Source: Escherichia phage phiEco32. Taken from it: 64,000 nucleotides of DNA. The DNA is taken from the sequence record NC_010324.1. One strand, written 5' to 3'. Positions 12,507 to 64,000 of the stretch are shown here, piece after piece (positions within the stretch are counted from its first letter, which is position 1; each line of letters starts with the position of its first letter). The notes under the pieces were generated by a model, which saw nothing but the letters and a program-made list of their open reading frames with translations, made no database searches and was not told the DNA's origin. Position numbers and translations under genes: made by a program.

Positions 12507-15500
12507 ATGGCTAACATTAAACCGTGGGAAGAAGCTTCCAAAGCTCCTGCGTATCTGAATGCCTCTCCGGAGCAACAAGCTCAAATGAGAGAACAATATA
12601 AGGCAGCAGGTGGCTCTATTCCTGAGGAACAACCAGTAGCACAACCACAACAAGAAGAACGTGGTGCTATAGGCGAGTTTGCTCAAGGTGTGTCAAATGC
12701 TCTTCAATCTGGTGGTGCAAATATTGCAGCTAGTGCTGCTAAAGGTATTGGTGGTTTAGTTGAGATCGGTGAGAATCTAGCTGGAGCACAGACTAGTTAT
12801 GGTAAGCGTATCCAAGAGAACTCTCAGAACCTTCTGAAAGAACGTATGGATAAGATTGAGGATGGGATTGGCAAAACTGTTGGTCAGTATGCTGGCGTTG
12901 CTGGTGATATTGGTATGACTGTTGCTAACCCATTGGCTGCTGCTGCTATCATCGCAGGTCGTGAGACAGGTCGTGCATATGCAGACCAAACCCCTGAAGA
13001 GGGAGAAGATAAGTCTATTCTAGATGCAGCCTTAGTTGGTGGTGCTAACTATGCGGCCCAGAGAATCCTTCCGGGTGCTGTCGGTACAGCTGAGTCCACA
13101 CTTGGACGTATTGGTCAGAACGTTGCCAGTAACGCAGTGGCTGGTGCTAAAGGTGGTGCTCTTGTTGGTGCTGCTGAAGTTCAGAACAAGTATGGGGATG
13201 ACAATGATCTAGCTAAGACATTGGAAGGTGTTATCGAAGAGGGGGCTATGGGTGCTGCATTTGGTGGCGCAGTTGGTGGGGTTCATGGTTTGATTAGCCG
13301 TCCGGATTCTGTTGTTTTCAAGAATACTCCAGAGTATGCGAAGACTGATATTGCTGCTGATGACGAACTGATTCGTAGTGCTAAGAATGTTGATGAACTG
13401 AAAGAGGCTTACTCTAAAGCTGAAACTGCTAACGCTGCTTCTGCTCTGAACCTTCTCGATGAGAATGGGTTCCGTATTACAGATGCTGTTGCTGTAGATT
13501 CTCCTGCTGCTCAGCGTATTCTTAACACTGACCAAGCTCGTGCTGAGAAAGCTGCTTCTGTTCAGAAAGAACACTCCAACATTCCGGGCCTTAATCCTTT
13601 AGCTTCTCCTGCTAAGACTCGTGGTAAAGCTTTCGCTGATAATGAGCACAACCAGAAACAGGCTGTTGCTATGAAGGATGCGATGGCTGACTATACCAAG
13701 GATAACACTAAAGCTCTTACAGATGTTTTAGATAACCTAGATCGTGAATTAACCTCTCTCCGAGCTTCTGGTGATTTTACTGGTAGTCCGATTGATATTA
13801 AGAATCGCACACAAGCTGACCGTGACTTCATTGATGCTTACAAGACTTTCTACAATGAAGCAAATCGATTCAAAGCTCGTGAAGGTGAAGACTTCAATAA
13901 CTTTGTAGAGAAAGCTGCTGAACTACAGAAGATGGCTGATAATGTTTCTCCAGAGATGAAGAAAGCTATTGGTGGTCTGAAGAAACTGAAGGGTATGCCT
14001 GAAGGTTTTAATCCTATTCAAGATGCTTACACTCTGAACAATACAGCTAAGTTCATGAGCAACCAAGATCGTGGTTGGACTTCCCTGACTGATGATGGGT
14101 TCCGTGAGGCCTCTTCTCCTAGTCTGGTAATGAACACTCTCGGTGCTGCTAAATATGCTCTGAATCGCTTCTCTTCTCAGCGTGCCCGTTCTCAACGTGT
14201 TAAGCAACAAGAGTCTAATAGTGAAGCTATCCGCTCTCTGGCTCGTGGTGATTTGGAAGTTGCTCGTGCTAAATCTACTGCTGATGAAGCTCGTGCTAAA
14301 ATGGAAGAAGAACCAGTTGTTGATGACATTAAATTTAAGACGCAAAATGACGTGGAAACCGAACCGGTTCGGGAGCCTTCTTCTAGTACTGTGACGGAAG
14401 AAAATCTTCCTTCTTCTGCTCCTCAAGAATCTCCTCTTACAGCTCGTGATTTAGTTGCGCAAAGACGTGCTATCCGTCAGGCTGAACAGCGTCGCGCTGA
14501 AGAAGAGGCAGCTGCTGCTCAAGAAGCTCCGGTTGAACAGGCTCCTCAGGCTGAACCTCTCCCTGCTCGTAATCCTCTAGAGGAACGTCGTGCAATGGAA
14601 CAGCAACGTGCTCAAGAAGAGGCTACACAGGCTCCAGAACCAACCGTAGAGGAACCAACAGTCAAAGCTGAGCCATTACCTGCTCGTGCTCCTAAAGCTC
14701 CTAAGGAAGCTGTACAGGACGTTAAACCGGCAAGTGGTGTAGAACGTTTAGCTGCTATGTCTAGTGCTGCTCGTCAGGCTACCAAAGATCGTGCAGAACG
14801 TTTTGCTCGTTCTCTGTACTCTAAGGCTGCTAAAGCTAAAGCCACTGCTGAAAACTTCTTGGCTTATAAAGGTGATCCTAAGGAATTGATGCGTCGTATT
14901 CGTCAGGAAGATAATGCTATCAACACTGAACGTCATGAAGAAATGGCTCGTAACCAGCTGGCTTCTCAGCAAGGTATTGCTACTGCTAAGAACAACACTG
15001 TACGAACTAATTTTGCTGAATGGGTTAAGGAACGTGGTCTGCCAGAAGACATTGCTACTAAGGCATTACGTGCTGAAGAGAAAGGTTTAGGTGGGAACGT
15101 AACTAACTTGGATAGTCTGAAACGTCGTGCTGAAAGGTTGTATCAGAAGCAGCGTGAGGATGAGTTTGATAGATTATATCAACAAGCTCTAGAAGAGAAC
15201 AAAGCTTTCGATAAGAAAGATGCTCCTAAACTGGTTGACCAGAAGAAAGAGCTTCAGTCTGAGATTGATGCTTTGATTGATTCAGAACCTTTACGTCCTG
15301 CTCAGAAAGATGCTATGCGTAAGCTGATGAATGACTTTGTAGATGGGAAGTTTAAATCTTCAGAGAAGGCTGGTAGGGAAGAGGCTTTGGAAGTTGGTCA
15401 GATGAAGGATATTTGGGATGGGTTTATTAACACCTACAACAGAGAAGTGAATGCCTTCAACAAAGCTAACAAGAACTCTCAGTACGAAGCTGCTGCTAAG

Positions 15501-23077: not shown

Positions 23078-23086
23078 TATACATTA
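23078..23086 (-). promoter_or_regulatory. candidate phage promoter element TAATGTATA (minus strand)
   Basis: Exact 9-mer on the minus strand ~60 nt upstream of the SSB start codon. Confidence 0.3.
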
Positions 23087-23149
23087 CGCTTATACCGATA
23101 AGAGTACTATATAATATAAGTATCTTTGGTAGTAGATATATCACACTAG

Positions 23150-23158
23150 TAATGTATA
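23150..23158 (+). promoter_or_regulatory. TAATGTATA element in plus orientation inside the 23.0-23.4 kb intergenic region
   Basis: Exact 9-mer (TAATGTATATAT) pointing away from the SSB gene; no plus-strand ORF downstream; could drive an antisense or small RNA. Confidence 0.25.
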
Positions 23159-46556: not shown

Positions 46557-47756
46557 TTATTTTCCTAAAAATAATCCGCTCATAATACCATCCCACTCAG
46601 AGGACGGAATCACTGAATACTCCGAACTTTGGTCCAGAGTTCCGCTACTGAATCGCTGAACAATATTATAAATATTGAACATATCTTTAGTCTCAGCGCG
46701 ATAAGCGTAGACTAATCTGTCAGCTGTTCTTTCATCTTTAGATACCCGACGAGCAAAGGTAACCAGAAGGTTGTCACCTTTGAGTATTTCTGACTCATCT
46801 TTTACTAGATCAGGGTGCATAACCGGCAAGAACATTGAGTTGTTCACTCGTAACTCTGCTGTTTCATCATTCTCATAATGAATCCACTTAAAGTCTTCAT
46901 CACGGAAATGACCACACCCATCTCTATATGACTGTTGACGCCAAGGAACTTGAAATGCTTCAGCGTATTTATCAGCCATGCCGACTGTAAATAGTGACGC
47001 TGGGAAAATACAAGCATCCCAATCATTACCAACCAGAGTTGCTTTCGTTTCCCCTAAGAGGTTAGTGTAAGTGCTAACCATTCGTGAGTAAACATAAGCC
47101 TGAAGGATTGTCCAGCCCTCAACCAACCATTTATGAAGGAAGGTTTCAACTTGACTCTCCTCATCTTCACAATAGAAGGTTCGGTCTAACATTAAATAGA
47201 ACAGACAACGATCAGCAGGAATGTTCTCAGTTGCTACCCCCATAAAACCTTTATCGTGCCAGCGTAAACAGGAGGGACGACCTTTGTCCACAAATGCTTC
47301 CATAGCTTCCAGTACAGCACGAGGTGTGGTTCGATGTTCAGGGTTTTTGTCGTTCCAACGTTCAATGTTATTCTTGGGAGGTGTGTCTTCATCTTCATAC
47401 GAACACCAACTTAAAGCTTCAGCTACATGCTTTTCATCACGCCAACGTCTAAAACCTAACATCTTCATATGAGTTCCAGAGTTCCAGATATGCTTGATTT
47501 TACACATATCCATCTCTCGGCTTAACCGGAACTCTTCTCCATCAGCACTACGAACGTTAGCTTCTTCATGCCACACTCGAACGTGCATATTCCACCCATG
47601 AGTTGCCTCATAAGTGTTAGGTTCAAAATATTCATCATACTCTTCATCGTCTTCATCAACGCCGCCATTATAGTTGCGAAGTTGAAGGAATCCATAACAA
47701 GGAGGACTAACCGTTAAAACATTACCTTCAGTATCTTCTAATGTTACTGGAAACAT
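46557..47756 (-). CDS. hypothetical protein (operon member; possible thiol enzyme)
   Basis: 399 aa; conserved-looking Cys/His positions (SPPCYGF, ATHGWNMHVRVWHEE). Confidence 0.45.
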   Translation of the reverse strand: MFPVTLEDTEGNVLTVSPPCYGFLQLRNYNGGVDEDDEEYDEYFEPNTYEATHGWNMHVRVWHEEANVRSADGEEFRLSREMDMCKIKHIWNSGTHMKMLGFRRWRDEKHVAEALSWCSYEDEDTPPKNNIERWNDKNPEHRTTPRAVLEAMEAFVDKGRPSCLRWHDKGFMGVATENIPADRCLFYLMLDRTFYCEDEESQVETFLHKWLVEGWTILQAYVYSRMVSTYTNLLGETKATLVGNDWDACIFPASLFTVGMADKYAEAFQVPWRQQSYRDGCGHFRDEDFKWIHYENDETAELRVNNSMFLPVMHPDLVKDESEILKGDNLLVTFARRVSKDERTADRLVYAYRAETKDMFNIYNIVQRFSSGTLDQSSEYSVIPSSEWDGIMSGLFLGK

Positions 47757-56163: not shown

Positions 56164-56844
56164 TTACCACTCGTAACTTACACCAGCGCCCAGAACAGCG
56201 TCACTCTCTGAAGTCATTGCCACTGATGCTTTAGTTACTACGTTTTCATTGAAACGAGCACTAACACCAATAGCAAGAGCAGATTCACCATCGTAAGCAC
56301 CTACCCCAGCACCAACAGAGAAAGCAGATCCTTGACTTACTTGCGGGATGTTAGCCATTGCAGCCACGCCAGAAATACCAGCAGAGGCATGATCACGGTT
56401 ACGGTCTACTTGTTTTTGCAAAGAAGCAAAACGTTTGTTGGTGGATTGTTCCAGAGCTTTGATGGATTTGGCGTTAGCATTAACGGCAGACATATCTGCA
56501 TCTTTACCATTTTTACCATTTAATCCGTCAACGCCATTCAAACCTGCTGCACCAGTTAGGCCAGTTTCGCCTTTCTTACCATCTGCACCAGAATCGCCTT
56601 TTTCACCTTGAGCGCCATCTTTACCATCAATGCCGTCTTTACCATCAATGCCATTAGCGCCAGTGTCGCCTTTCTCTCCCTGATCACCTTTTTCACCTTT
56701 AAACCAATCTCCGATACCGCAACCATTGGTAGATTGACCTACACCACAACCTCCATTGCCATTGCCATTGTTTCCACTTTTAGCAAAAACAGGCGATGCC
56801 ATTACGGACAGAGCTAGGATTGATGATAATACAATTGCTTTCAT
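56164..56844 (-). CDS. YadA-like trimeric autotransporter-type protein with collagen-like Gly-X-Y repeats
   Basis: Start set to internal ATG (MKAIVLSSILALSVMASPVFA signal peptide). About 20 Gly-X-Y triplets (GEKGDQGEKGDTGANGIDGKDGIDGKDG...). C-terminal ~70 aa (AGISGVAAMANIPQ...AIGVSARFNENVVTKASVAMTSESDAVLGAGVSYEW) matches a YadA-type anchor. Confidence 0.6.
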   Translation of the reverse strand: MKAIVLSSILALSVMASPVFAKSGNNGNGNGGCGVGQSTNGCGIGDWFKGEKGDQGEKGDTGANGIDGKDGIDGKDGAQGEKGDSGADGKKGETGLTGAAGLNGVDGLNGKNGKDADMSAVNANAKSIKALEQSTNKRFASLQKQVDRNRDHASAGISGVAAMANIPQVSQGSAFSVGAGVGAYDGESALAIGVSARFNENVVTKASVAMTSESDAVLGAGVSYEW

Positions 56845-58332: not shown

Positions 58333-59232
58333 TTATGCCGCCTGACGTGCCGCCATAATTTCAGCCGCTTTACGCAATACTTCTTCCTCTTCTGCTTTCG
58401 CCGCTTGTTCGGTACGGGTAGCAACCGTTGAAGAGATACGACCGCGCAGGCTTTCTAACTTCTCCTGCATAGTTGCAATGGTCTTTTCCATTTCATCAGC
58501 GTATGAATCGAGTGATTCTAATTCCTTGCTTGATGCGTTCATCAGATAATCATCTGAGATCGCTACCGTCGAGGCCGTGACTTTCTTGATGAGTGAATCA
58601 AAGGACTTTTTAACCTTCCCAACTTCTTCACTCAGGGCGATAGTGTTATCGCTAGTTGCGCCGTTGCGCTCATCAGCCAGTAATTTGGCTTCAATACGGA
58701 TTGCATTCAAGCGTTCAACTAAAGCGTAAATATCCTGATTAAAATCTTCCTTGTTTTTCGCCGGAATTTGCAGGTGTGCCGCCACGTTGTCATTACAACC
58801 CTTGTAAAAGTTAGGGTTATCGACTTCAATTTCACGGCCTAAAGCAAAGTTTTCGAAAGCGTTTGACCAGCGAGCGCGGTTTTGTTCCATTTTGGCCTTA
58901 ATTTGCGCTTCTTTCGCGTCTTCTTTAGCTTTCGCCTCACCTTCCAGATTAATCCACTTTTTACGACCATTTGCCGCATCGGTGTTAAACTTGATAGGAG
59001 TTAAGAAAGTAATTGCAGTGGCAATCACATCCATATCACGAAAACGTTCAGTTAACAAGAAGTCAACCGCCGTCTGCAATACGTCCAGCTTTTTACCGTT
59101 ACTGCGGAAGTGCTGTAAGTGCCCTAACAGGAAGTTAGAAACATCTTGTTTGATCGCCGCGTTATTGCTACGAATGTTGTTAGCCAGTGCGTTAAAACCA
59201 GATTCGTTAACCAGAGTAAAGATTTTAGCCAT
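58333..59232 (-). CDS. hypothetical coiled-coil protein
   Basis: Start set to ATG 59232 (MAKIFTL...) with AAGGTGA SD 5 nt upstream; GC content visibly higher than the phage average. Confidence 0.5.
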   Translation of the reverse strand: MAKIFTLVNESGFNALANNIRSNNAAIKQDVSNFLLGHLQHFRSNGKKLDVLQTAVDFLLTERFRDMDVIATAITFLTPIKFNTDAANGRKKWINLEGEAKAKEDAKEAQIKAKMEQNRARWSNAFENFALGREIEVDNPNFYKGCNDNVAAHLQIPAKNKEDFNQDIYALVERLNAIRIEAKLLADERNGATSDNTIALSEEVGKVKKSFDSLIKKVTASTVAISDDYLMNASSKELESLDSYADEMEKTIATMQEKLESLRGRISSTVATRTEQAAKAEEEEVLRKAAEIMAARQAA

Positions 59233-60052
59233 GATATTCACCTTTCAATTGTAAGGGCGCTATTGCCCCGCTCTCTATGAGCTTGTTTAAGTCACTATTA
59301 ACTTAACTATAACCACTCGTTGTTAAGTAGTTATAGGTAAGCGGGGCGGTCTTATCAGGAGTTAACCTTGCCGCCCCCTTATCCGTGATGTTTCATCTGG
59401 TATCTTTAATTAGTCGCTATAAACGAAGCCGACCTGATAGCGATGATCAATCATCACAATAAGGCAGTGCGTCCGACTCTAATTAGTTACGTTTATTGTA
59501 ACCGTCGGCAATATCGTCTACTTTGCTTTCGCTCTCGCCTATCCTTTTGTATCAACTCTCAATCACTAGCCATCGCCCACAACGGGATGCTATTGTGAAA
59601 GAGTCATTGACCGTCTAATGTTCTGACGTTTTATATCTTTCGGCAAGTTTACTACATAAACCGACTATGTACTTTCATCTTGTGATGAATCTCAAGCCGT
59701 TCACATCGTAAACGTTCACACTAAACCTTATTGTTAAATAGCAATTTGCCACTTTTTAACCACTCCCCGCCGCCCTCAATTGGGCGTTAATTCTTCGGGC
59801 TTGCCTACCCTGATTAACTTCTTTCACTGTAGCGCCTTGTTAGCGATGGCCGCCGCTACCCTTAACCGTGGGCGATTAGCTTAAGCCTTTGCGTGCACTC
59901 AATGAATCCGTTTATCAGTGGTGACGTTTCCAGTAAGGGAATGTAAAACTGTTTACCCTGATAATTTAGGGAGTCTTACGCCGTTTTATCTGGTATGCTT
60001 TCCGATGGTTATTATCATCAAGCATATTCAACCGATATAGGAGAATGTTTAA

Positions 60053-60720
60053 ATTATTAAAGAGCGGTAAATCTATCAGTGTGCTTTCTCACACTATGCA
60101 ACTGTTAGCCGTTGTTACGCTTTCCTTAAGCGGTGATTTGCTTAAGTGTGCTCATTATGAATCATGCTGTTTTAGCTGTCAACCACTTTTTTAATCTTTT
60201 TCGTCGTTCCCGCTGTTGGGAGGATATATCAATCAGCTATGTTTGATTGAAGATTAAGCGGCAAGGCTTAAACTTATGATTCATATTTTTAAAGAGCGGT
60301 TACTACATTCACAGCTTAACACATCGTGTTAGCTTGTCAAACTCTTTTTTATCATCTTCTTTTATTCCGTTCCCTTATCTCGCTTGAATCTATGCGAAAA
60401 GGCAAGATGATAAGTCTGATTTGTCTTTTAGGAATCTAGTGCACTTTCAAGCATCGACCATTTGAAAGTATCGAACAAATGAGGCTTATTTTGTTGCTCA
60501 TCGTCCGCCTGTTTCACGTATGAATCAGGAATCAATTCTAGCGGTCAACTAAGCGCCTTATAGTAATGACGTTACCGCCACCTGTAAGACAAATCATATT
60601 TTTAAAGAGCGGGATGTTTTGATTCATCGCTGAATGAGTGCTCATTATGTATCAGGCTTTTTCCGGTGTCAATACTCTTTTTTAAGTATTTTCACTTTCT
60701 AGCCTGATTTTTAAAGAGCG
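60053..60720. repeat. four dispersed copies of a 14-15-nt repeat (A)TTTTTAAAGAGCG(G) within an ORF-free region
   Basis: Copies at about 60053-60067 (variant ttattaaagagcgg), 60285-60299, 60598-60612 and 60707-60720; two are preceded by tgattcat/aaatcat; irregular spacing (232, 313, 109 nt). Confidence 0.5.
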
Positions 60721-61176
60721 TAGCACTTCGTTGTGCGTCCTACCGTCGGTATTCCTACCGCTCCCCGTTGAAGCCTTTTACCGTGATGCTAATCACCTAT
60801 CAGGGAATCTTGTTGCTTGTTGCTTACTGCTTACTACGGGATTCATATTACTATACAGGAAAACCCTGTCAATACCCTTTTTTCAAACTATTTTACATCT
60901 CATTGTTTTATAAAGGAATTTATTTTAGGGATGATAGGAACTACAAAGAAATCAGGATATAGAGGAACGGGTGCGCGTGATACATCACAAGAAACGGCTT
61001 GTAAAGCAATAATAAGCGTCCTAAAACGCATCACAACGAGCTAAAAGGGAGTAAGGTATACAATCACCTTAGAAAAGAAAAAAGCCTCTTAATGAGGCTT
61101 ACAGGAAGGATTTAAAGCATCAGATAGATTATGACCATAGGCATGACCACGGCACAATACAGGAGAAAGATTAAGC

Positions 61177-61542
61177 CTATGGATTTACACATTGACCGTT
61201 ACCGGATGCCATTTCATTCATGGACTCATCAAAGAGCGTTAACGATGAGCGCATCAAGTGATCGACCGTGATTTGTTTACCAGTGGATTCATTTACCAGT
61301 TGAACAGTTTTATCATATGATTGCACATGATCGAAATCATTTACATGCAAAATAATAACTTTAGGTGACTTTTTACCGGTTTCATAGTTTTCTACAAGAT
61401 AAGTACATTGCAAGCCGTCAACCGTAGCAGGGGAAAATGTTGCAGCCTTAACGCTACCCATAGCCGATAGCAGGACACCTAACAGAAGAACGACCAGAAA
61501 GAAGCCTACAACCGTTTTAACGACGAATTTAATAAACCACAT
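61177..61542 (-). CDS. secreted/membrane protein (N-terminal signal-anchor)
   Basis: 121 aa; MWFIKFVVKTVVGFFLVVLLLGVLLSAMGSVKA. Confidence 0.45.
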   Translation of the reverse strand: MWFIKFVVKTVVGFFLVVLLLGVLLSAMGSVKAATFSPATVDGLQCTYLVENYETGKKSPKVIILHVNDFDHVQSYDKTVQLVNESTGKQITVDHLMRSSLTLFDESMNEMASGNGQCVNP

Positions 61543-61634
61543 AGCAATAAACCTTTAGTTAGAGAATATAAGAATAGAGCATATCAGCGACGAATAACGC
61601 CACTGTAATAACGAACAAGCAACGCCAAAAATAA

Positions 61635-61916
61635 TCATTCTTCTTCATTGATACCCTCGCCAAAAAATGCTACGCTGATCTGTTCCACTTCTTCCAGCGA
61701 TAGGAGAATCCCACGTTGCGCCAAATACTTCCCAACTGTTATATAATCCTGCACCAGACAAACAACGGGAAAGCGGATATTTTGTATCTCACCTTTAGAA
61801 AGAAAAGATAAATAACCAGCGTCGATTGATTCATCAAAGGACAATGTAACGCCACCGTAATTATGCGTATCAATTAACGCAATAGTTTCATTTCCCATAA
61901 CGTTTCCAATCCTCAT
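61635..61916 (-). CDS. hypothetical protein
   Basis: 93-aa ORF in the co-directional run at the right end of the window. Confidence 0.4.
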   Translation of the reverse strand: MRIGNVMGNETIALIDTHNYGGVTLSFDESIDAGYLSFLSKGEIQNIRFPVVCLVQDYITVGKYLAQRGILLSLEEVEQISVAFFGEGINEEE

Positions 61917-62118
61917 AGTGATTAACTAGTGCCTGATAATCGTCAGATGATAACTCACCGCCTAAATAGGCAACGGTTATGCGTGCTTTGTATTCTGACA
62001 AACTGCATAGCGCGGGAGCGGATAACCTGCTTTCGCCATAACATCCTAGCACTTCAACGATACAACCGTTTAAAGATACTGATTTATTAATCACGATATG
62101 GTTAGCCATTAATATCAT
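61888..62118 (-). CDS. hypothetical protein
   Basis: 76 aa; overlaps neighbours at both ends. Confidence 0.35.
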   Translation of the reverse strand: MILMANHIVINKSVSLNGCIVEVLGCYGESRLSAPALCSLSEYKARITVAYLGGELSSDDYQALVNHYEDWKRYGK

Positions 62119-62365
62119 CCTTAATTAGTCCATGATTGAGCAGGTTAGCCAGTGATAGGCCACCGTCAAAATAAACAGAACGGAAATCATCGCGGTCAAT
62201 TTCGATTCCGACAGCAGATAGCCAATTTTTAGCCTGTTCAAAATCCATAGTACAGAAAGCAACAACAGGCAACGTTAACTGACCGTGACGCATGTTAAAC
62301 GTGATAGCGGTATCGCCAACAAAACAAGAAAAGCCATTAGATAATCTAACTTCTTTGATAGCCAT
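62102..62365 (-). CDS. hypothetical protein
   Basis: 87-aa ORF. Confidence 0.4.
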   Translation of the reverse strand: MAIKEVRLSNGFSCFVGDTAITFNMRHGQLTLPVVAFCTMDFEQAKNWLSAVGIEIDRDDFRSVYFDGGLSLANLLNHGLIKDDING

Positions 62366-62389
62366 TTTTACACTCCCAAAATAGGTTAT

Positions 62390-63262
62390 TTACTTACCAG
62401 CCTTAATACAGTTGGCTAAATTAACGTGAACGGTATAAACAGCGTTATCAGCGTTATTATAAACGGTAGTGGCGATCATCGACTCATTAACCGGACCATA
62501 ACTCACTAGGTTGGTTACAGCTTTAACGTCTTCGTAACGTTGTACAGTGCCAAATGTCACCATATCCGCATCGTTATCAGTACGCTTGAGAACTAGATCA
62601 CTGTTAGGCTGATTGTCTAGTGTCTTAGACTGAAAGAGAACGCCATCATTAGTTACGTTGCTAAACTTCATTTTTAGCACGATATTATTGCTGTCACTAT
62701 CTGCACCGTTGCAAATCATCCAACCTTTATTGATGGAACTAGAGAAGACACTAGCGGCATCAGTTGCAGGAGTAGGACTAGCGATAGCCTTATCAGAAAG
62801 AGATGTGACCAGTGCACTAACACCAATAGCTGCAACCAGTGCATAACTTGCCAGATTAACAGACTTCATAATCTTACTTGCAACAGTAGGCTTGATTGGC
62901 TGTTTCTTGTTTTTCTTGTTCCATGCTTCAACCATGACAGACAAGCGGGATAATTCAGCTTTCACATCGCGGCATGACTCAGGCCAATCTTTCTGATTCC
63001 AGCTATCTAGATTCGCCTGAATGTAACAGTTGATAGCGTCCTGCATATCGGTAAAACCGTTCTCTTTGAACGTGCTTTCATCTTCACACTGTAAGGCGTT
63101 CGCAGTAGAGTTAATGATCAAGCAAGCCAACATGATTGAGTTTTTGAATCCTTTACGTGCACTTTCGTTTTCCATCCACGCATCAGGACTACCAACGGTT
63201 AAGCCTAAAGAGGAAAGGCTTTCGTTTGCTTTGTTCAAGTGGTTAATTGCTACTTTAGACAT
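62390..63262 (-). CDS. hypothetical protein with central hydrophobic segment
   Basis: 290 aa; preceded by >700 bp of AT-rich non-coding DNA; central TMD-like LASYALVAAIGVSALVTSL. Confidence 0.5.
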   Translation of the reverse strand: MSKVAINHLNKANESLSSLGLTVGSPDAWMENESARKGFKNSIMLACLIINSTANALQCEDESTFKENGFTDMQDAINCYIQANLDSWNQKDWPESCRDVKAELSRLSVMVEAWNKKNKKQPIKPTVASKIMKSVNLASYALVAAIGVSALVTSLSDKAIASPTPATDAASVFSSSINKGWMICNGADSDSNNIVLKMKFSNVTNDGVLFQSKTLDNQPNSDLVLKRTDNDADMVTFGTVQRYEDVKAVTNLVSYGPVNESMIATTVYNNADNAVYTVHVNLANCIKAGK

Positions 63263-64000
63263 TTGATATTCCTTATGGTTGATGAAAACTACAAACTACA
63301 ATCGCAACTATATAATAAAGGAAAAGGCTGTCAACCATTTATTTTCTAACTTTCTTGCATCCTACTGAAAACTAAAGGAATTTAATTTACTAAACTTTCC
63401 ATATTCAGGGGGATTAACTTACTAACTATTGTTACTTTATAACACTAACGATAACACTACGGGTAGCAGACCAACAGACCAGGACAAACGGGGATACAAC
63501 AACCGCAGGACAGACCACGGGGAAACATGCAAGATAGTGCGGTAATAATATACCACTTAAATAATTAGTTAACTATTAATAGCATTACTCAAACATCAAA
63601 GACCATTCGCTACGCTCATGTACGCTGAAAAAGAAAGTATTAAAAGAAACAATTAAAAGAAATACAATCATCCACTTAATTAATACATATATCATTATTG
63701 CACTCATAATCATTGCTATTGAAACTATTATCAACGTAACTATGGGGGATGTGGGCTATTACTTATGGGTATTATTAACCCTCTTATGGTAGTGCCTGTA
63801 CAGTGCTAGCCTTTCTCTCACTCTTTAAAGGGGAACTAAATAAACGGGTAGCTAATGAATAGGATGGTATACACGGGGAAATAATTACGGGGAGTAGGCA
63901 CGGGGAAAGGTGGAACGTTGAAAGGGAAGGTAAAGGCATTCCCATATGAGCTTTTTTAAATGAGGACTCCCCCTTTTTAGGAAACGCGCGGCGAGCGGCT

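Follow-up and report, generated by a model that had tools for sequence, protein, structure and literature searches.

The right part of the genome of Escherichia phage phiEco32 was analyzed in a window of 64,000 nucleotides of the record NC_010324.1, which was taken to be positions 13,555–77,554 of this representative of the genus Kuravirus. The last 738 nt of the window, located beyond the start of its last gene, the leftward gene phi32_128, carry an early promoter, a spacer, a G-rich array of the short motif ACGGGG and a copy of the direct terminal repeat (DTR) of the phage (Table 1). The preliminary description of this region had reported more than 700 bp free of open reading frames (ORFs); no sizeable ORF is indeed present, but ORFs of 38–53 amino acids (aa) occur there. 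Each of the four small ORFs is intact in no more than 2 of 15 aligned phages, so that no conserved ORF was found. The AT-rich leader of the same description is represented by two stretches, 63263–63456 (29% GC) and 63546–63807 (31% GC), and is not uniform, as a GC-rich island (54%) lies between them. The last 193 nt have a GC content of 47%, and the window ends in a GC-rich stretch, as described.

Table 1. Positions of the features at the window's right end
Feature	Position	Strand	Details
Gene phi32_128	62390..63262	-	290 aa, unknown function; ORF identical to YP_001671873.1
Sigma-70 early promoter of gene 128	63307..63334	-	TTGACA, 16 nt, TATAGT
GC-rich island with the upstream motif cluster	63457..63545	+	ACGGGTA 63459, ACGGGGA 63488 and 63517; about 29 nt apart
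Candidate second leftward promoter	63545..63572	-	TTAACT, 16 nt, TATTAT; 9 of 12 consensus positions
A-rich tandem repeat	63629..63662		AAAAGAAACAATT, 2.6 copies; score of 54 in Tandem Repeats Finder
Two highly conserved non-coding blocks	63674..63713		ACTTAATTAATACATA, ATCATTATTGCACTCATAATCAT; mean identity at least 0.95, 14 relatives
Left boundary of the right terminal repeat	63805..63811	+	GCT|AGCC, between 63807 and 63808; boundary of the Paul record at the same base
Right copy of the DTR	63808..64000		Gapless alignment to the copies at either terminus of SU10 and YF01
Motif cluster inside the repeat	63844..63906	+	ACGGGTA 63844; ACGGGGA 63873, 63887 and 63900
Most conserved block of the repeat	63960..63979		ATGAGGACTCCCCCTTTTTA (TGAGGACTCCCCCTTTTT); TGAGGACTCCCC invariant in 15 of 15 phages
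GC-rich terminal 21 nt	63980..64000		GGAAACGCGCGGCGAGCGGCT, 76% GC

Terminal repeat and its boundaries

Judged by comparison with related phages, positions 63808–64000 are the right copy of the known 193-bp DTR, and position 64000 is the physical right end of the genome, at genome position 77,554. The region matches about 95 records of Kuravirus, phiEco32-like podophages with prolate heads, at 66–90% identity. The final base of the window aligns to the final base of the linear records of SU10 (77,327) and YF01 (78,626). The DTR is present in both termini of SU10 and of YF01; these terminal copies begin at AGCCTTTCTCTC of the window (63808) and stop at GCGGCGAGCGGCT (64000), which gives 193 nt, and exactly the equivalent of this segment is annotated as a direct terminal repeat at both ends of YF01. 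The repeat of the window is about 93% identical to that of SU10 and is conserved across 15 phages. The record of phage Paul had been given its start at the left boundary of the repeat on the basis of PhageTerm, and the match of this record to the window ends at 63807, the last base of that record. The comparison with the termini of related phages, suggested in the preliminary description, therefore gave base-exact agreement with SU10, YF01 and Paul, and the nearby physical genome end proposed there is supported by the record ends of SU10 and YF01, the DTR at 63808–64000 and the Paul boundary at 63807.

Repeats of 193 bp have been published for phiEco32, SU10, Paul and YF01, that of phiEco32 in PMC9965538 and PMC4281155, and 30 phages of this group were found to carry repeats of 192–193 bp (PMC9965538). 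The reads of SU10 show a sharp drop-off at both repeat ends, which corresponds to blunt ends (PMC4281155), and whole-genome nanopore reads were obtained for YF01 (PMC9965538). The segment found here is the same element as these Kuravirus DTRs, with the same length and the same boundaries, and its location is shared as well, with the last leftward early gene on one side and the first rightward gene on the other.

The block at 63960–63979 corresponds to the 'highly conserved region' at about 130–170 of the repeat (PMC9965538) and to the CCCTTTTTTA repeat (PMC4281155), so that both the position of the block and the CCCTTTTTTA-type internal repeat fit the published descriptions. The block holds an inverted near-copy of the motif of the array (minus strand GGGGGAGT), takes part in the pair CTTTTTTA, 10 nt, CCCTTTTTA, and pairs with 63882–63895 in the inverted repeat I13.

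In circular and metagenomic assemblies, namely, Bas91, Bas89 and eight metagenome or Logan contigs, one repeat copy lies between the rightmost gene of leftward orientation and the first genes of rightward orientation. The left-end genes follow directly after the repeat, and the gene of the large terminase is located about 2 kb further. A single repeat in the middle of a record is what the collapse of a concatemer junction would be expected to give. The continuation of ordinary genes immediately beyond the window, named in the preliminary description as an observation that would speak against a genome end, is thus seen in the circularly assembled relatives, but it represents the collapsed junction, and the physical end is therefore not refuted. 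The edge of the window could also be an assembly junction or an arbitrary cut, as many related records are circularly permuted and carry the same sequence in mid-record. The window end, however, agrees to the base with three independently determined termini, those of SU10, YF01 and Paul, and this explanation, of which the assembly junction had also been offered in the preliminary description, is unsupported and extremely improbable.

Both boundaries of the DTR have the sequence CT|AGCC, where the bar marks the boundary, and a shared candidate cleavage sequence of the kind that belongs to a T7-type pacB/pacC signal is thereby present. Of 15 phages, 11 have CT|AGCC at the left boundary, and of the 12 with sequence continuing beyond the right boundary, 9 have it there; in a concatemer, AGCCCC of the left unique region comes after GGAAACGCGCGGCGAGCGGCT, as the circularly assembled relatives show. 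GCTAGCC or CTAGCC as a unique cut signal was ruled out, the hexamer CTAGCC occurring 17 times in the window. Accordingly, the sequence of the cut site alone cannot specify the ends, and recognition requires a separate element.

The ACGGGG array

The plus strand carries five copies of ACGGGGA, at 63488, 63517, 63873, 63887 and 63900, together with two degenerate copies, ACGGGTA, at 63459 and 63844. The number of the copies and their direct orientation agree with the preliminary description, as does the coordinate 63488, but the other four coordinates had been given 10 bases too high; the eighth base, described as A or T, is so in four copies and is G at 63887. The spacings along the array are 13, 14, 28–30 and 328 nt. 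Copies inside the repeat, counting the degenerate one, occupy repeat positions 37, 66, 80 and 93 and are spaced by 29, 14 and 13 nt. The longer duplicated unit CAGGACA..ACGGGGA, also noticed earlier, is present twice (63480–63494 and 63506–63523), with unequal internal spacing. In the GC-rich island, the sub-repeats CAGACCA and CAGGACA sit between the motif copies.

The total of ACGGGGA in the 64 kb is six, with 3.0 expected, and 7 of 100 shuffles reach six, so the count as such is unremarkable. The sole reverse-oriented copy of the window is located at 60762, in the spacer 59242–61176. Clustering of five same-strand copies within 419 nt is unusual: the top cluster of any 7-mer per 420 nt consisted of three or four copies when 60 sequences of equal length were generated from a first-order Markov model. 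Elsewhere in the window, three further 7-mer clusters with at least five copies were detected. These same-strand clusters, namely, TCTTCAT (six copies, 47386–47650), TTACCAT (five copies, 56504–56639) and ACTGGTG (five copies, 2242–2539), are probably repeats inside coding sequence.

Conservation of the array was analyzed in an alignment of 15 phages, the window and 14 relatives, and the strand and position of the motif were counted in 14 junction-spanning loci of 61.9 kb in total. In these loci, ACGGGG occurs 92 times on the plus strand and once on the minus strand. Its positions relative to the repeat start are about -320, about -290, +65, +79, +92 and about +322. In 12 of the 14 loci, the copies at +65, +79 and +92 keep these positions, and the upstream copies, about 320 and 290 nt before the repeat, are present in 11 of the 14. 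In the locus L012, the upstream copies are about 40 nt closer, and in the loci L007 and L025, three copies are located further out. The array is thus represented by two or three copies about 290–350 nt before the repeat and three or four inside it, with one more in the relatives about 130 nt after it. Additional copies occur in some metagenomic relatives: in the locus L024 (1701–1983), a duplication of about 100 nt ahead of the repeat adds one ACGGGG, and L025 (858–1410) contains three upstream copies and four in-repeat copies; accordingly, the copy number of the array varies between lineages.

The 15 phages show no variation in the ACGGGG cores at 63873 and 63900 or in AAACGGG at 63843, and the core at 63887 is invariant within Kuravirus. 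Phages EP335 and Bas89, about 66% identical to the window in this region, keep the cores in diverged flanks and have three full copies upstream; the ACGGGT sites of the window read ACGGGG in these more distant relatives. The conservation of the five copies is 0.927, as compared with 0.788 ± 0.071 for random sets of 7-mers from the same compartments, and a fraction of 0.013 of such sets reaches this value. The restriction to one strand and the fixed positions amid diverging flanks point to constraint.

Repeats without a function, left by local duplications in a region conserved for other reasons, would agree with the insignificant total count in the window, with the closeness of the relatives, in which conservation can partly be inherited, and with the degenerate state (ACGGGTA) of two positions in the window. 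Such an origin of the array is unlikely, however, in view of the cores kept by EP335 and Bas89 amid changing flanks, the positions at which ACGGGT and ACGGGG are swapped and the site is retained, and the strand bias of 92:1.

Another function proposed for the GC-rich island and the AT-rich spacer is that of a replication origin or priming zone, in which the repeats would be iteron-like or serve as primase sites. The direct repeats do adjoin AT-rich DNA of 29–31% GC, and GACCA sub-repeats are present at 63474 and 63510, the minus strand carrying TGGTC three times in 50 nt. TGGTC is a site of the T7-primase type, and T7 has secondary origins near its ends. Iteron-type origins are characterised by regular repeats of about 17–22 bp, an initiator gene and an AT-rich unwinding element, and this combination was not found. 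The repeat core is only 6–7 nt long and its spacings are irregular (13–30 nt), unlike iterons; no initiator gene is adjacent, the neighbouring proteins having no recognised function; the terminal repeat contains half of the array, and GACCA is not retained in the in-repeat copies. An origin, mentioned as an alternative in the preliminary description, is unsupported and improbable here.

The G-runs could also form a G-quadruplex or other non-B DNA at the genome end: the plus strand has 13 G-runs of at least three nucleotides versus three C-runs, and three GGGG runs are located 13–14 nt apart inside the repeat. Neither strand, however, contains a four-run motif with loops of up to 12 nt, the sole candidate requiring an 18-nt loop, and both strands of the repeat, as single-stranded DNA, fold no better than shuffles (z +1.4 and +1.6, that is, worse). 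Formation of such structures is very unlikely.

When IMG/VR was scanned for exact occurrences of a 16-mer of the repeat, one real Kuravirus contig was recovered; two further loci were discarded as chance matches. In the more distant relative Salmonella phage 7-11, the record contains neither a terminal repeat nor the shared motif, and no generalisation of this architecture could therefore be made.

Promoters, spacer and other features of the window

The early promoter at 63334–63307 matches the consensus at 11 of 12 positions and has the characteristics of a sigma-70 promoter, including a hexamer spacing within 16–18 nt. All aligned relatives with gene 128, EP335 and Bas89 among them, retain the promoter block, and its homologue in SU10 is the predicted promoter at 76677 'upstream of CDS125' (Table S2, PMC4281155). 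The promoter is predicted to start leftward early transcription of genes 128–125. A terminator-like hairpin is located at 61100–61082, and the promoter together with this hairpin indicates a short leftward early operon of genes 128–125; the same operon layout was described for SU10 and phiEco32 (PMC4281155). For phi32_128, no Pfam match was found, and only PHROG families of unknown function were recovered. The 5' untranslated region between the -10 element and the start codon of gene 128 contains a perfect tandem of AAACTAC (2.3 copies, 63286–63301), and YF01 lacks one AAACTAC unit.

The spacer between the promoter and the repeat (63335–63807, about 470 nt) is conserved non-coding DNA with ten short blocks conserved at 95% or more. 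The candidate second promoter in this spacer overlaps an extended -10-like element, TGGTATATT (63555–63547), in the conserved block 63532–63566; its -10 part is kept in 15 of 15 phages, but its -35 part is not. The segment 63545–63572 is regarded, with low confidence, as a second leftward promoter, and the block 63532–63566 could instead be part of a packaging signal. In phage 7-11, two sigma-70 promoters were validated at the right end (PMC8948821). The A-rich AAAAGAAACAATT tract in the AT-rich spacer may be intrinsically bent DNA, and the adjoining block ACGCTGAAAAAGAAA (63622–63636) is among the most conserved non-coding blocks. The sequence CCACTTAAWTAAT of the two blocks at 63674–63713 recurs at 63553; ACTTAATTAATACATA and ATCATTATTGCACTCATAATCAT are candidate parts of a pacB-like recognition region.

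The conserved extended -10-like element and the two validated early promoters of phage 7-11 agree with a role of the repeats in transcription, either as regulator sites for the right-end early promoters or as 5' leader elements of a transcript from 63545–63572. The upstream copies would fall in the leader of the second promoter, and the reading fits this upstream cluster only. Folded as RNA, neither strand of the GC-rich island surpasses its shuffles (z 0.21 and 0.29), which argues against leader elements. Moreover, the in-repeat copies lie upstream of every candidate leftward promoter and, at the left genome end, precede genes of the opposite orientation, and only one promoter is predicted here in the SU10 paper (PMC4281155). 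A transcriptional function of the repeats is, accordingly, of low probability. The ideas of a hairpin and of a structured leader were dropped, as folding was not better than that of shuffles.

Inside the repeat, the plus-strand sequence TAATGAATA (63853–63861) differs by one mismatch from TAATGTATA, the promoter motif of the phage sigma factor gp36, and some relatives have TAATGTATT at this place. A gp36 promoter at 63853 was rejected, one-mismatch matches being at chance level for the window. The left copy of the repeat would put TAATGAATA upstream of the left-end genes. Three exact TAATGTATA motifs were found at 23078–23158, on both strands. The segment 23001–24000, a local GC minimum (31.5% versus 42% in the window) near a switch of strand skew, is likely the known divergent middle/late promoter region.

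The segment 59242–61176, located between phi32_124 (58333–59241) and phi32_125 (61177–61542), comprises 1.9 kb without a sizeable ORF. It contains three near-consensus leftward sigma-70 promoters, with -35 starts at 60872, 60672 and 60182, in addition to the hairpin 61100–61082, and corresponds to a description of 'three promoters in the spacer' given for SU10 and phiEco32. In relatives, the 121-aa protein (61177–61542, minus strand) is labelled 'terminase' and the 87-aa protein (62102–62365, minus strand) 'polymerase'. These names derive from small PHROG families and look unsupported; no Pfam match was found for either protein, and the 121-aa protein has a hydrophobic, signal- or membrane-like segment at its N-terminus.

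Packaging model and comparison with known systems

With high probability, the region is best explained as the non-coding right terminal segment of the linear phiEco32 genome, consisting of the promoter, the spacer and the DTR. The G-rich array and CT|AGCC may be packaging signals of the pacB and pacC types. In T7, recognition of PacB is the task of gp18, the small terminase, and the large subunit gp19 cleaves at PacC (PMC9860248). In the corresponding model for phiEco32, replication would produce concatemers with one repeat copy per junction, as in a T7-type cycle, and the terminase would recognise the junction via sequences located within and next to the repeat. The strongest candidates for a pacB-like site, which the small terminase subunit would bind, are the ACGGGG array and the invariant blocks, because they flank and fill the repeat, are directional and give no sign of an RNA, a single-strand structure or a coding role; they would thus act as duplex DNA and not as folded strands. 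The Rfam scan of 59000–64000 revealed nothing in the region and one sub-threshold chance match outside it. Cleavage by the terminase would take place at the two CT|AGCC sites, which would be pacC-like, and DNA synthesis would duplicate the repeat, giving a copy at each end of the packaged genome. More specifically, and as a tentative proposal made by analogy, the one-stranded ACGGGG array may be the directional recognition element of the Kuravirus terminase, acting with the CT|AGCC cut sites.

In T3 and T7, pacB occupies the equivalent place, the right-end unique DNA before the repeat, where phiEco32 has its conserved non-coding elements just before the DTR. Short-repeat arrays, SRL and SRR, reportedly flank the repeat of T7, as Dunn and Studier are said to have described in 1983. 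Like the T7/T3 junction signal, the phiEco32 region has a short terminal repeat with defined ends, one copy per junction, and a recognition element separate from the cut site. Unlike in T7/T3, the array of phiEco32 is partly inside the repeat, there is no sequence similarity, and the Kuravirus elements are candidates. Kuraviruses use the host RNA polymerase and a phage sigma factor and, unlike T3 and T7, lack a single-subunit polymerase, so that the dependence on transcription known for pacB in T3/T7 cannot be assumed.

Short direct repeats by a cleavage site, in an AT-rich and possibly bent context, are also represented by the R sites of lambda cosB and the pacL and pacR boxes of SPP1. Their likeness to the array would be one of functional analogy, as the sequences, the spacings and the end types differ, with cohesive ends or headful packaging in these phages and blunt direct repeats in Kuravirus. 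The putative small terminase of Kuravirus resembles PaP3 TerS (PMC9965538). In the PaP3 cos site (GCCGGCCCCTTTCCGCGTTA), bound by the small terminase of PaP3, the sequence CCCCTTTCCGCG is loosely similar to the invariant repeat end CTCCCCCTTTTTAGGAAACGCGCGG; this likeness is short and may be due to chance. In contrast to the Kuraviruses, PaP3 is described as a cos phage.

Several points weigh against the packaging interpretation. Binding of a protein to the ACGGGG cores is hypothetical. The putative small terminase, phi32_6 or SU10 gp004, has no Pfam match and matches only PHROG families of unknown function, and the phmmer comparison of phi32_6 with PDB sequences returned no terminase; its assignment rests on HHpred similarity (PMC9965538). 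The aligned phages are related, and neither the conservation test nor the count of 92:1 consists of independent observations. The copy after the repeat sits in a small coding gene, from which its conservation may stem. That the two repeat copies are the same in phiEco32 is concluded from relatives and from the papers.

Both the 193-bp terminal repeat of phiEco32 and the early promoter region in the right end of its genome are already known. The literature search for ACGGGGA in the context of phage termini gave nothing relevant, and neither the ACGGGG array nor the shared CT|AGCC boundary appears in the published repeat descriptions that were covered, the primary phiEco32 papers lying outside that scope. 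The array may already be described in the primary papers, a further point against the interpretation as far as its originality is concerned, and the details of the array and of CT|AGCC are not claimed as new.

The analysis illustrates that the end of a phage genome can be recognised from the texture of its repeats alone, without tools. For the group of phiEco32-like phages, the small additions are the orientation-specific conserved ACGGGG array and the identical CT|AGCC at both boundaries of the repeat. If these are true signals of packaging recognition and cleavage, circularly permuted Kuravirus assemblies could be opened at the correct ends, and the design of packaging-competent plasmids or contained particles would become possible for these phages, which are candidates for therapy.

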